Shown here piece after piece: positions 14,711-20,986 of a DNA stretch of 64,000 nt; positions within the stretch are counted from its first letter, which is position 1; every line of letters starts with the position of its first letter. Below the pieces are notes generated by a model, which was not told where the DNA came from, made no database searches, and saw only the letters and a list, made by a program, of their open reading frames with translations. Source of the DNA: Pseudovirgaria hyperparasitica (Eukaryota). The stretch lies in assembly GCA_010093815.1 (NCBI GenBank), contig ML996593.1. One strand, 5' to 3'. The translations under genes were made by a program, and so were the position numbers.

Positions 14711-15256
14711 TCAACCGAGAACTGTCGCCGCGTCGGCGGCGTTGACCTCCTCGGTGTAGGCGTTGGTTCCGTCTTCGGCTTTCTGGAGGACTAGGATGTA
14801 GTTGACGGCGTCGGTGCTGAGCTCGCTGCGCTTTCCGAGGACGGTAGCGGCATCCGCGGCGTTGACTTCGTCGGTGTAGGCGTTGGTTCCGTCTTGGGCC
14901 TTCTGCAGGACCAAGATATAGTTTACTGCGTCGGTGCTCAGCTCGGCACGTCTCCCGAGAACTGCCTTTGCGTCGGCAGCGTTGATCTCCTCGGAATAAG
15001 CATTGGTCCCATCTTCGGCTTTTTGAAGGACCAAGATATAGTTGACGGCGTCGGTGCTGAGTTCACTACGCTCTCCGAGGACTACCTTTGCGTCGGCAGC
15101 GTTAATCTCCTCGGTATAGGCGTTGGTTCCGTCTTGGGCCTTCTGCAGGACCAAGATGTAGTTGACGGCGTCAGTGCTGAGTTCGCTGCGCTTGATAGCA
15201 AGAGGAGCTGCTGTAACAGTGGCGGCCAGAAAGGCAAGTGCGAGTTGACGGAGCAT
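14711..15256 (-). CDS. Secreted Kex2-processed repeat protein (KEP); putative dikaritin-type RiPP precursor, 181 aa
   Basis: ATG at 15256. Signal peptide MLRQLALAFLAATVTA, then APLAIKR, then four near-identical units (S/A)ELSTDAVNYILVLQKA(Q/E)DGTNAY(T/S)(E/D)E(I/V)NAADAxxVLG joined by ER, RR and KR. Adjacent to DUF3328 genes. Confidence 0.9.
   Translation of the reverse strand: MLRQLALAFLAATVTAAPLAIKRSELSTDAVNYILVLQKAQDGTNAYTEEINAADAKVVLGERSELSTDAVNYILVLQKAEDGTNAYSEEINAADAKAVLGRRAELSTDAVNYILVLQKAQDGTNAYTDEVNAADAATVLGKRSELSTDAVNYILVLQKAEDGTNAYTEEVNAADAATVLG
14714..15187 (-). repeat. Coding tandem repeat, 4 x 120 bp (last unit 114 bp)
   Basis: Exact 120-nt period: lines starting 14761, 14881, 15001 and 15121 all begin c(g/a)ttggt(t/c)cc(g/a)tctt. 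Confidence 0.97.
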
Positions 15257-16172
15257 TTTGGCAGTTTGGGAATGGAACAATGTAGATACTCGGTTGGTCT
15301 GTTGAAGAGAGAAGTGTTTGCGTTGGAGATATTTCCGACAGCAGTGATTGTGCGAGATATTAATATTTTTTTCGAACCTCAGGTCGATTAAAGCTATAGT
15401 TAAAGATACACTCCTCAACCCACAATGCTAATGTCACATCTCGAGTGACCATGTCATCCCTCGCTGCATGTACAGGCTCCAGATGTGCAGATTATAGTGC
15501 ACAAGCTCGGTTGAAAAGCTTCAGAAAGAGAATATGCGCAAGGATTGAGAAAGTCTTGCTTGTCCCCATCTACCTTATCTAATCATTTAGCTGTATATCA
15601 AGTGTCATCTTAGCAAAATTCGTAGTGTATCAGACACCTCACTGTTGCCACTAACACATAACTTCATCAGTAAGCCATCTACTCCAACTCGCAAGCACTA
15701 GCCGCAGCTTTACTAAACCTGCATTCTCCCTGTCACCGATGTAACCATCGCGGGCCTGAGTATTGGATTGGACTTTGCTTCATCGAGTAATATGTTTTGC
15801 ACACGGATGTCACCTACAGGGGTAGCCTGCGAGATGGACAGCATAACAAACCACCTCATTGAATAGGCTCGGCAGGCTTTCTGTATCCATCAAAAGGGGG
15901 GGTGACTTCGAATGAACCATACATTACCTACCCCCTCCCTTGAAGTAGGGTAGTCTTTACGTCTTACAATAAGCAGATTATATGCATATAAGCCAAGTAA
16001 TCATCTGCATTGCAAGAGTGCCACACAGATCAACGAAAATCTGGCGCAAATCTACTTCCCCTTGTAGACCATTGAAGCTGTCACAGCAAAGTCTAAACAC
16101 CTCCTCCTCCAGCATGACCTGTCCTACCCTCACTTCCCCTCCTGAAATTCACCTCTCTCCACCGCCGTCTAT

Positions 16173-17086
16173 ATGGACCAGCTACACGAGCAACAGTACG
16201 CTCTACTACCCTCAGAGAATGGCGACGAGCCTTCCAAGGTCGTGGAAGAAGTTGGGCCGCGTGTGCGCGAATCTTGGTCTTTCCGGATAGCCAGTTTGAT
16301 ATTATTCGGCTTGCTCACACTGTTGATTTTCCTCGCTCAGAACATAGGTCCAAACGACAAAAAGTGTACTAAGCAGCTAAATCTATGGTGTATGTGACCA
16401 AAACTCTCTTTCGTGTGCTGTATACTAATGCTACTTGAATTTCACAGCTCCGCTACTAGACTCAGTGGAATACTACGAAACGGACTTTGGCAACGAGTTT
16501 AACTCGACAAGCATCTACCGTGGACTTCCTACGCCGGAGAGAGAGGAAGCTTGGAACAAACTGGTTACCAGTTCGTAGATTATGACTTTCATTTCCAACT
16601 TAAATCTTACCATAACCGTAGAACATGCCATTGAAGTTCCAGTCGACAAGATACATGGTCTCAACCGTACGGAAGCCGATATGATGAAGCATGTCCCTTC
16701 AGATATCGGGACGGGCTACATTGGACTTGTAGAAGTCTTCCATCAGCTTCACTGCTTGGTGGGTCAACTCATAAGCCCTCGATTGATAGGCGATGACATC
16801 TGACCACAACACATAGAACATGCTTCGAGTCTACACATGGGTACAAGCCGGCAAATACCCAAACCCACCGCCTATGCTGGCGATGAGCGAAGTGCAGAAC
16901 CGCATGCATGTTGACCACTGCATTGAGTCCTTGCGACTCGTGTTTCAGTGCTGGAGCGATGTAACGCCTGTTTTGATCAAGTTGGGCGGACCAGTTGGGC
17001 GCAAAGCGGATTTCAACACCCACCACAAGTGTCGTAACTTTGACAAAATCGAGGAATGGATTGATGAAAAATGGACAGTGCCGTGA
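16173..17086 (+). CDS. DUF3328 / UstYa-family oxidase (copy A), 4 exons
   Basis: N-terminal TM helix, then SPLLDSVEY, YRGLPTPEREEAW, VFHQLHCL, HVDHCIESLR..QC.SD.TP and HKCRNFDKIEEW. Introns at about 16390-16447, 16571-16621 and 16759-16817. Confidence 0.92.
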
Positions 17087-18638: not shown

Positions 18639-19528
18639 CTAGCCGAAAGTGCCATCTGGAAACCTAGTACCATGTCGAAGCGTAGCACTTACAATGCTAT
18701 CAAATCGCTTGCACTGGTGTGCCGCTCCAAAGTCTTCTTTTGCAGGGCCGCCGTCCTCTCCTTCGTACCACAGATATGGTGTCAGATCGGCGTTGCACAT
18801 AAGAGCCTGGCGAAGTGTTGATATGCAATGACTCACGTGCGCCCGTGATTCATTGTGCTCCAAGAATGATGGCCTAAGATCTTTCGGATACTGGTCTTGC
18901 CAGACATATTGACGTACGGAATTGAGGCAGTGGAGATGATGAAAGACTTCGATTGTGCCGATATATCCGTTCTTGTTATTGTCGCCAGATTTCAGTAGTT
19001 TGCTTTCAGTGGAACGGTTGAGTAGGGTAATGCTGGCCTTGGGTATGAACACTGGAGGCACTAATTGCCGACACCACATCAGCTTTGCCCAATTGAAGAG
19101 ACGTAGGAGGAGGACTTACTTGCTTCGAGCGCCTTCCAGTTGCGCTCACGCTCAGGTGTTGGAGGACCGTTATATAGGTCGCTCGATGAGAAGTTGTAGA
19201 GCTCGTATTCCACTGAATCGAGTATTGGGGCTGTAAAGAGTCAGTCACGCGATAATCCAACTCCAATTGAACAAAAGTCCGTACACCAAAGGGCTGTTTG
19301 TCTCAGACATTCTTTGATAGAACATGTCGAGCTGCTCATATACCACTGCACGATTGCTCCGTAAAAAAACATGCATATACATATGCATTGCCAAAGCAGG
19401 CGAGAGTATTCCTCCAACCTCTTGCCATTGATGGAAGTGCGATCTTCCTTATCGAACAACGAAGGCTCTTCGTCGTTTGCTGGAGCATATCTCACTTCTT
19501 TCACGGGCTTCAACCACTTTGACAGCAT
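18639..19528 (-). CDS. DUF3328 / UstYa-family oxidase (copy B); 3' end uncertain
   Basis: TM exon MLSKWLKP...QTALW; exon SPILDSVEY..YNGPPTPERERNW; exon with VFHHLHCL, HVSHCISTLRQALMCNADLTP and HQCKRFDSI. A GTAAGT right after FDSI suggests a further intron, so the real stop may lie slightly below 18639. Confidence 0.9.
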
Positions 19529-20044
19529 TGGGGAGAGGTCTTTGAGATCACAATTTCTAGATATCACTGTTGTCATTGTAACGCATCATTTGACCACCGC
19601 AATACTCGTCTGTAGTACCCTGGGTCACTGAGCTCACCCATGACTAAAATGTAACCCGGGATATGTGCCGGCCGAGAGACCGGGTCTTGCGGATGAGCCA
19701 AGGTCGAAACATAGAGCCACAGGTAGGGGTATGATGCAGTGAGAATCTAGTGTGGTCGAAATCTGGAGGAGGGGGCCTCTAGATTTGATGCTTTACATGT
19801 TGTATGGTGTAGCCGAGTGCTGCGTAAGCGCGGTGATGGCATGTAACTTCGACGCATATCTAGAAACCTGCAATTTGTATTTTGCCTCTGTAGAGAGCAT
19901 GTAAGGCCGATGTAACATGTCATACTTTTGTCCTTAAGCGGCGCAAAGTGGATGGCGGGACATTTCCTCAACTCTCGTCTGCTCCTCCTGCCCACGGACG
20001 ACTCGCTGAGGTTCACAAGCTCGATTCAAACATCTTGTTCCATC

Positions 20045-20986
20045 ATGTCTCTAGAACAGAAAACTATTTCCTTGTTCGAAAGTGATCAAGGGCTTGGTGC
20101 TCGGTTTGAGTATATGAAACTGACGCCTCCCAGCATGTTTGTACGATATAAAGCACGCATGCCTGGAAGCGTACTGTCGGTGCTCTATCTTTGCATTATA
20201 TCCACATTCATAGCTTGTTGCATCCTTATTTTCCACCGACCGAGCGACGTGCAATGTGCAAAGCAGCTGAGTTCTTACTGTATGTTGCAGCACTTGCCAT
20301 GCAAGCCTGGGATGTTGACGCAAACAAACAGCACCGGCTCTAGAGGCTGTGGAATACGTGAACATTGATTTCGACGCTGATTTCGATGCTCACGGTATAT
20401 ATCGCGGACCTCCAACACCTGAGAGAGAACAGGCATGGTTTAATCTGACGACAAGTAAGTCCTGAGCAATGCGTCTACATATTCGTGCAATGTAAAAGAG
20501 CCATGTGCTAACAGAACTGTCAGGGCCTGGGATTGAAGTTCCCAGAGACAGGATTCATCTGTTGAACCGGACAGAAGCAGACAACTTACAGCATGTTCCC
20601 GCGGAAGTTGGTACAGGCTATACTGCCATATTAGAAGTTTATCACCAGCTGCATTGTCTTGTGAGTCGGGACTCGAGAAATTCGCCTCCAGGAAACTTAC
20701 TTGTCTACAGAACATGATTCGAGGATACACATGGTGGCAAGTTGGCAAATATCCTGGTACTCCAGATGGTCTGTCCGAGGATCGACTGATGAACAGAATG
20801 CATGTAGATCATTGCATTGAGAGCTTACGCATGTCTTTGCAATGTTTCGGGGACGTCACCCCATTGTTGATACGCGAGGTACCACATTCTTTCATCGGAG
20901 GCAAAGCGGACTTCAATACACATCATCGATGTAGGAACTTCGATAGGATCCAGGAATGGGTAGATGTGAACTACGCTGTGCTTTGA
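20045..20986 (+). CDS. DUF3328 / UstYa-family oxidase (copy C), 4 exons
   Basis: TM helix, then PALEAVEY, YRGPPTPEREQAW, VYHQLHCL, HVDHCIESLRMSLQCFGDVTP and HRCRNFDRIQEW. Same three intron positions as copy A. Confidence 0.92.

Follow-up and report, generated by a model that had tools for sequence, protein, structure and literature searches.

A repeat-protein gene and three UstYa/DUF3328 genes in divergent pairs

The DNA analyzed here (the window) is a 64,000-nt stretch of contig ML996593.1 (GCA_010093815.1) from Pseudovirgaria hyperparasitica, a fungus described as a mycoparasite living on rust sori (PMC3317363). A block of ~6.3 kb, at positions 14711-20986 of the window, contains one repeat precursor gene and three UstYa/DUF3328 genes (UstYa-A, UstYa-B and UstYa-C), all four of which are intact. 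The model of the middle UstYa gene, UstYa-B, is identical to a P. hyperparasitica protein in the NCBI database (XP_033595242.1 / KAF2752791.1). The genes are arranged as two divergent pairs, with the start codons of the precursor (-) and UstYa-A (+) 916 bp apart and with 468 bp between UstYa-B (-) and UstYa-C (+). The original prediction, made from the nucleotide sequence alone, had placed a precursor head-to-head with a DUF3328 gene, followed by a second divergent DUF3328 pair, and both this layout and all of its coordinates, orientations and motifs proved correct.

The intergenic region of the first pair (15257-16172) is presumed from the gene coordinates to be a shared promoter, while that of the second pair lies at 19577-20044; an equivalent B-type (-) and A/C-type (+) pair was found on metagenome contig L001, described below. 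No motif common to the two regions was detected above shuffled controls. Specifically, nine 9-mers were common to both regions (shuffle mean 3.1, maximum 14), as were three 10-mers (shuffle mean 0.87, maximum 6) and no 11-mers.

The precursor gene (14711-15256, -) is a single exon of 181 codons plus a stop, recognized from its open reading frame (ORF), the codon bias of its repeats and a family of relatives. Its first 23 residues (MLRQLALAFLAATVTAAP..., 15188-15256) form a signal-like segment that is hydrophobic over residues 4-17 (mean Kyte-Doolittle value 1.74), continues into AAP..KR and closes in the first KR site. Four repeat units follow, of 40, 40, 40 and 38 aa, each with an LG end: unit 1 (residues 24-63, 15068-15187) is followed by the non-canonical pair ER, unit 2 (residues 64-103, 14948-15067) by RR, and unit 3 (residues 104-143, 14828-14947) by KR, while the LG of unit 4 (residues 144-181, 14714-14827) abuts the stop codon. 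Tandem Repeats Finder reported the same array at 14715-15193, with a period of 120 bp, 4.0 copies, 79% matches and a score of 559. The predicted protein of four basic-residue-delimited repeats is present, with a signal-like start and the junctions KR, ER, RR and KR. The ER junction lies at 15071-15076 (-) and may either still be processed or yield a double unit; one relative, P0025, has ER behind both of its units.

Kex2-processed repeat proteins (KEPs) have been defined as having at least three tandem repeats, each of at least 8 aa and none above 100 aa, between KR, KK, RK or RR sites (PMC7329392). The canonical sites of the precursor (KR at residues 22-23, RR at 102-103, KR at 142-143) delimit pieces of 78, 38 and 38 aa, in agreement with this definition. 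The signal peptide for entry into the endoplasmic reticulum that is expected of a KEP was also found, as judged from composition and reading only.

Comparison of the four units showed that their DNA copies have diverged by 14-27% and their protein copies by 8-18%. Over all unit pairs, 93 of 128 nucleotide differences fell at codon position 3, and synonymous codon differences outnumbered non-synonymous ones by 83 to 26. Because of this third-position and synonymous bias, and because the DNA has diverged more than the protein, the reading frame is genuine, purifying selection acts on it, and the repeats must be old. The units are acidic, with a net charge of -4 to -6. As the original prediction had stated, none of the known core strings YAIG, YVIG, YVIP, FYYTGY and GLKLAF occurs in the precursor sequence.

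The exact 181-aa precursor was absent from a collection of 15 billion proteins, although UstYa-B and UstYa-C are both annotated NCBI proteins; the ESM Atlas, on the other hand, contains it letter for letter. The precursor may be missing from the NCBI annotation of the genome or be modelled differently there. Feature matches to the precursor in the ESM Atlas scored 0.80-0.85, values that serve only as a lead, and the third of them was the yeast alpha-factor family. Structure matches from the same source depend on a poor model and were set aside.

The three UstYa genes were modelled as spliced transcripts with canonical GT..AG introns of 50-69 nt. UstYa-A (16173-17086, +; 248 aa) has exons at 16173-16389, 16448-16570, 16622-16758 and 16817-17086, separated by introns of 58, 51 and 58 nt. 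UstYa-B (18639-19576, -; 274 aa) has exons at 19285-19576, 19120-19230 and 18639-19060, and its product is the database match P0001 (XP_033595242.1). UstYa-C (20045-20986, +; 256 aa) has exons at 20045-20279, 20332-20454, 20524-20660 and 20711-20986, and it equals P0043 (XP_033595243.1) in length, with a last exon that is 100% identical. All three scored above the gathering cut-off of 25 bits for PF11807 when searched by exon (UstYa-A, 29.6 and 61.8 bits in exons 3 and 4; UstYa-B, 113.1; UstYa-C, 28.6 and 72.6), with E-values of 1e-16 to 2e-32 (2.2e-32 for UstYa-B); their family membership is established. Each protein has two HxxHC motifs (UstYa-A, residues 154 and 190; UstYa-B, 175 and 209; UstYa-C, 160 and 196) that are invariant or nearly so in alignments of either type. 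In addition, a single N-terminal transmembrane helix was found in each on hydropathy alone; the best 19-residue windows were residues 37-55, 60-78 and 44-62 of UstYa-A, UstYa-B and UstYa-C, with mean Kyte-Doolittle values of 2.41, 1.66 and 2.65, respectively. The prediction that all three keep both motifs and the membrane helix was thereby borne out.

UstYa-A and UstYa-C are 50% identical to each other and 36-39% identical to UstYa-B. In a tree with 24 relatives, the B type (10 rows; Shimodaira-Hasegawa-like approximate likelihood ratio test [SH-aLRT] 100) and the A/C type (13 rows; SH-aLRT 97) formed separate clades. The UstYa-A product was not among the 16 matches listed from a search with the last exon of UstYa-C, despite long identical words in the last exons of the two genes. 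UstYa-A, although intact in our model, may be unannotated or annotated at a length below 161 aa.

The precursor family and its linkage to UstYa genes

A word-index protein search with the precursor, covering lengths of 99-317 aa, returned nothing at E<=1e-3. An exhaustive phmmer search of 1.84 billion representatives, however, gave 24 matches at E<=1e-3, of which nine reached E<=1e-10, so that the earlier blank can be attributed to the word index itself. Eighteen of the 24 matches are short proteins (62-224 aa) of the same build as the precursor, in which a signal-like start, sometimes joined by a pro-region with a KR end, is followed by one to four units. Those with a name belong to Ramularia collo-cygni, Venturia effusa, Nemania serpens and a Letrouitia genome bin. 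The long matches P0022, P0024, P0028, P0029 and P0033 were unrelated repeat proteins (FG-GAP, coiled-coil, HEAT/NACHT) and were removed from the family; P0018 (5807 aa) was left out of the family count.

A profile built from eight units recovered 47 units in 20 proteins, namely the 18 short matches, the window precursor and a precursor on contig L001. An LG end was present in 44 of the 47 units. The two residues behind the unit were KR in 18 cases, RR in seven, ER in three and other residues in five, and the remaining 14 units ended the protein; that is, KR or RR stood behind 25 of the 33 units that have further residues, and 14 of the 20 proteins stop exactly at the G of their last unit. This combination of LG-[KR]R junctions and proteins ending at LG is the pattern predicted by cleavage at those sites, and kexin would be expected to cut there. 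Within the units, the first of two tyrosine motifs, NY[IV], was kept in 36 of 47 cases and the second, [AP]Y.[DE][DEA][IV], in 43. The stretch between the motifs differed from member to member in sequence as well as length. At the far end of the family a different hydrophobic strand, one lacking Tyr, takes the place of the first motif, and the second motif and the LG end are retained.

The family also extends to the apple scab fungus Venturia inaequalis. When the unit profile was run over the 1311 proteins listed in PMC9632046, the three proteins of effector-candidate family 107 (g951, g9632 and g9635) were identified as members, with five units in g951, three in g9635 and two weak ones in g9632; with these included, copy number in the family ranges from one to five units. 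Nine "dikaritin" clusters linked to DUF3328 genes, with ten candidate precursors between them, are described in the same paper; g951, g9632 and g9635 may or may not be among the ten. Its Additional files 3 and 5 show g9632, g9633, g9635, g9636 and g9637 rising together in planta from 2 to 7 days after inoculation, with a log2 fold change of up to ~10, so the two precursors of this locus are induced along with three neighboring genes; g9630, g9631, g9634 and g9638 are absent among the rows listed in the differential-expression tables, and g951 is recorded there as not induced in planta. The locus of g9632 and g9635 is a second one in V. inaequalis; its two precursors are diverged, lie three gene numbers apart, and the unit motifs of g9632 are largely lost.

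These data bear on whether the repeat protein is cleaved at all. An intact repeat protein, secreted or bound to the wall, or else a folded effector would be the alternative, with the basic pairs incidental. The ER junction would suit such a protein, as would the AlphaFold2 model of g9632 (pLDDT 51.59), which is rated a good prediction in Additional file 6 of PMC9632046 and is given an apolipoprotein-like helical match there. The AlphaFold2 model of the window precursor, computed with 14 aligned relatives, nevertheless had a mean predicted local distance difference test (pLDDT) value of 41.5 and no residue above 70; this low confidence is compatible with an unfolded polyprotein but is no proof of one. 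Also at odds with an uncleaved protein are the frequency of KR or RR behind the units, the many proteins that end at LG, and the variable number of units, which differs (four vs. two) even between the near-identical metagenome genes described next. We therefore regard an uncleaved protein as highly unlikely.

A metagenome scan with an alignment of single units gave 152 pattern matches, two of which, L001 and L002, were confirmed by tblastn. On L001 (20 kb), a B-type UstYa gene (~5871-6825, -) and an A/C-type gene (~8106-9051, +) precede a four-unit precursor (9701-10366, +), and the flanks hold unrelated genes (NACHT, hydrolase, PRP3). L002 (2.2 kb) carries a two-unit precursor (914-1333) and, 650 bp upstream of it, the end of an A/C-type gene. 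The two precursors are nearly identical except in unit count, which points to changes in copy number between close relatives. Taken together with the window, UstYa genes lay within 4 kb of a family member in all three DNA contexts that could be read. Consecutive locus tags in Ramularia collo-cygni add a further case, with RCC_04294 (B type), RCC_04295 (A/C type) and RCC_04296 (precursor), the last two of which are also consecutive accessions. Tags of Letrouitia subvulpina (003253, A/C type; 003254, B type), V. inaequalis (BLS_009706, B type; BLS_009708, A/C type) and V. effusa (002108, B type; 002116, precursor) are likewise close in number. Both subtypes occur together in five genomes (Pseudovirgaria, Ramularia, L. 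subvulpina, V. inaequalis and Aspergillus aculeatus). No Nemania UstYa was found among the 26 matches listed, a negative of little weight given how short the lists are and that the word index restricts them. These comparisons show that other fungi, too, have kept a precursor together with B-type and A/C-type UstYa genes as a cassette. The linkage between precursor homologs and DUF3328 genes, on which the original prediction depended, is maintained in every context that could be read, and the kind of locus that it proposed is right.

It is conceivable that the units are secreted as unmodified linear peptides, acting as a signal, an acidic antimicrobial or an effector, and that the UstYa enzymes act on another substrate. 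In the 2020 KEP survey, 78% of KEPs had no DUF3328 neighbor and many were pheromone-like (PMC7329392), and the authors of PMC9632046 first classed the V. inaequalis family members as effector candidates. The units, moreover, are long, acidic and conserved over their full length, as would suit a peptide active as such. We still consider this explanation unlikely, since the recurrence of the same two UstYa subtypes in three of three DNA contexts, and in the Ramularia numbering, is hard to explain without a functional tie, and since no non-ribosomal peptide synthetase (NRPS), polyketide synthase (PKS) or other plausible substrate-making gene was found among the window ORFs searched with Pfam.

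The same survey bears on novelty. It catalogued 7878 KEPs, 1758 (22%) of which had a DUF3328 gene among their 15 nearest genes (PMC7329392), and family members had already been listed as family 107 of V. inaequalis (PMC9632046); the word "new" in the original prediction was therefore overstated. As to whether the locus is in the KEP surveys, the kind of locus is, whereas the two-unit proteins of Ramularia and V. effusa (CZT18451.1 and QDS74193.1) are absent from Table S2 of PMC7329392. Because the survey needs at least three repeats and the copies in these fungi have only two, the survey overlooked the family in at least two of the species that it covered; Pseudovirgaria lies outside the species set of that survey. 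Full-text literature searches with the unit strings and six locus tags returned nothing relevant. We conclude that the locus is an uncharacterized addition to a well-known general type of cluster.

Comparison with known systems and proposed product

Three Pfam scans were made of the window: one of 36 ORFs and exons across its 64 kb; one of 57 ORFs, each 45 aa or longer, from the gaps at 13.6-14.7, 17.1-18.6 and 21.0-22.8 kb and in the right flank to 24.4 kb; and one of 106 further ORFs of at least 95 aa. The window has 145 stop-to-stop ORFs of at least 95 aa, 33 of which were covered by the first two scans; six of the remaining 112 were omitted from the third, five because they overlap cluster genes already scanned as exons and one because it was in the second scan. 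No tyrosinase, methyltransferase, peptidase, major facilitator superfamily or ATP-binding cassette transporter, transcription factor, NRPS or PKS was detected in these ORF-based scans, which short exons may escape. The prediction of a minimal, oxidase-only system set between ordinary genes, with no tyrosinase, methyltransferase, peptidase, transporter or regulator adjoining it, agrees with this result, and "oxidase-only" is a fair label, with the proviso that an ORF scan may miss short exons.

Similar enzymes are known to tailor non-ribosomal products, as CctO, CctP2 and CctR do for cyclochlorotine, and the UstYa genes of the window might do the same, with the repeat gene a bystander or the cluster a decaying remnant. 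DUF3328 enzymes do act on non-ribosomal peptides (PMC12435403), and UniRef labels some of the relatives "cyclochlorotine biosynthesis protein", a name assigned automatically. The scanned ORFs of the window, however, lack any NRPS or PKS domain, as do the 20 ORFs scanned of the 58 listed on L001, in which no tyrosinase or methyltransferase was found either. All four genes are, in addition, intact and the repeats are under purifying selection. For these reasons a non-ribosomal substrate or a remnant cluster seems to us the least credible explanation.

The enzymes themselves share the domain family and layout of CctR. CctR, a DUF3328 hydroxylase of the non-ribosomal cyclic peptide cyclochlorotine, is described as a membrane-anchored, disulfide-linked dimer with a lumenal binuclear copper site formed by its two HxxHC motifs, and it uses O2 and electrons (PMC12435403). 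By sequence, UstYa-A, UstYa-B and UstYa-C share with it a disordered N-terminus followed by one transmembrane helix, as well as a helical domain in the lumen that bears HxxHC(x)nHxxHC and C-terminal cysteines; a copper site and a dimer would be expected of them by analogy. Unlike the substrate of CctR, the proposed partner in the window is a ribosomal repeat precursor.

Precursors with a signal peptide and Kex2-bounded repeats, accompanied by DUF3328/UstYa genes, are likewise found in the asperipin-2a, ustiloxin and phomopsin clusters, where DUF3328 is needed for Tyr-based cyclization and is represented by one, two and five genes, respectively (PMC7329392). Ustiloxin and phomopsin differ from the window locus in needing a tyrosinase and in carrying methyltransferase, peptidase or transporter genes, none of which appeared in our scans. 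The repeat unit of the window is, moreover, several times longer than those of the dikaritins and lacks the core strings listed above. When the five-part definition of dikaritins by Ding et al., as quoted in PMC12048977, was applied, two parts were found (a leader with a repeated-motif precursor, and multiple DUF3328 genes, here three), and three were not (tyrosinase, methyltransferase, and transporter/peptidase). The description "dikaritin-type" in the original prediction thus does not hold in the strict sense, although working clusters without some of the five parts are known (PMC12048977). By product, dikaritins are macrocycles in which a Tyr side chain forms the closing ether bond; the units of the present family have two conserved Tyr (in 36 and 43 of 47 units).

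The epichloecyclin cluster of Epichloe festucae consists of the precursor gene gigA, the DUF3328 gene gigB, the SET methyltransferase gene gigC and the kexin gene kexB (PMC10540207). GigA has a signal peptide and imperfect 27-residue repeats, each a core plus a follower, that are cut at LXKR, and GigB carries out a cyclization through Tyr (PMC10540207). In common with this system, the window locus is small and has long repeats, sites of the LXKR form (LG-KR, LG-RR and LG-ER) and a DUF3328 partner. It differs in having no methyltransferase or dedicated kexin gene, three UstYa genes, falling into two subtypes, where the epichloecyclin cluster has a single one, and units of 38-40 aa with other motifs, and the likeness to GigA was judged by layout and not by sequence. 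By this analogy, the epichloecyclin precursor appears to be the closest model for the window precursor, and the layout as a whole is closest to the minimal asperipin-2a and epichloecyclin clusters. Family 107 of V. inaequalis belongs to the same precursor family and includes the two in planta-induced genes (PMC9632046).

Taken as a whole, these observations suggest, with a probability that we put at roughly 0.7, that the 6.3-kb block is a minimal KEP and UstYa/DUF3328 ribosomal-peptide cluster whose product is an oxidatively modified secreted peptide. The precursor would enter the endoplasmic reticulum through its signal-like N-terminus, where the three membrane-anchored UstYa enzymes, with their catalytic domains in the lumen, would oxidize one or more defined residues of each 38-residue unit. 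The likeliest target would be one of the two conserved Tyr motifs, V-N-Y-I or [AP]-Y-x-[DE]-[DE]-[IV], and the reaction a cross-link or a hydroxylation. Because the second motif is kept in all branches of the family, it is the first candidate for modification, and the hydrophobic V-N-Y-I-L-V-L strand may serve as a recognition element. Kexin would then cleave behind LG-[KR]R in the Golgi and a carboxypeptidase would strip the basic pair, so that units with an LG end would be secreted, possibly after further trimming. That the two UstYa subtypes are constantly paired points either to two reactions in succession or to a mixed dimer.

Several points weigh against this interpretation. One of the four junctions in the precursor (residues 62-63) reads ER, which departs from the canonical Kex2 site and could leave units 1 and 2 joined. 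A unit of 38-40 aa is far longer than known cores, and no gene for a peptidase that would trim the units was detected in the window by the Pfam scans. The Tyr of V-N-Y-I is absent in the more distant members (11 of 47 units), so any choice of modified residue is provisional. UstYa genes are also common in Ascomycota; the 2020 survey counted 9399 of them over 1461 strains and placed 31.8% close to KEP genes (PMC7329392). Finally, the linkage in Ramularia and Venturia is drawn from the numbering of locus tags and not from DNA, and the co-induced V. inaequalis genes g9633, g9636 and g9637 are known from PMC9632046 by gene number and expression.

A more specific form of the product can be put forward, tentatively. 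What is conserved across several classes of Ascomycota is the whole acidic unit of ~38 residues, with its length and two Tyr motifs, and not a core of 4-9 residues. For this reason the mature product might be a peptide of ~4 kDa, with cross-links introduced by B-type and A/C-type UstYa enzymes acting as an obligate pair; it would then represent a large-peptide class distinct from the small dikaritins and epichloecyclins. We consider this a doubtful speculation. If true, the mycoparasite could employ such a peptide against its rust host or its competitors. The strong induction of relatives in the apple scab fungus during infection suggests that the product may matter in interactions between fungus and host.

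Thousands of loci for DUF3328-dependent ribosomal peptides have been predicted in fungi, but few of the products are known. The present locus is tractable, with four small genes, no accessory enzymes and a conserved precursor motif. Its two oxidase subtypes are found again in Dothideomycetes, in lichen-forming Lecanoromycetes and probably in other classes. The locus offers a clean system in which to ask what paired UstYa copper enzymes do to a peptide and what purpose a long unit with two Tyr motifs serves.

Other genes in the window

The neighbors of the cluster are ordinary genes. To its left, at 10541-13600, lies an ion transporter of the Na/Ca-exchanger type, identified with Pfam, that is not a plausible peptide exporter. 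To its right are a protein without a Pfam match (22767-23582), a molybdenum-cofactor-sulfurase-like protein (25.8-28.2 kb) and, farther away, a cytochrome P450 (38-39 kb). Other neighbors in the window include SHR3, pectate lyase, HsbA, DAGAT, PEX1 and MCM7.

Three further observations were made toward the ends of the window. Two adjacent genes at 51396-56300 (-) have matches to the T6SS_Tle1-like catalytic domain (PF09994, a DUF2235-type hydrolase fold) at ~51.4-53.2 and 54.0-56.3 kb. An open frame of 852 residues at 3720-6275 (-) matched a single family, the ubiquitin-like ULD_2 domain (PF22893, E = 1.8e-37). A gene at 57951-61058 (+) combines animal-haem-peroxidase and cytochrome P450 matches, a layout that we take to be that of the fungal fatty-acid oxygenases of the psi-factor type.

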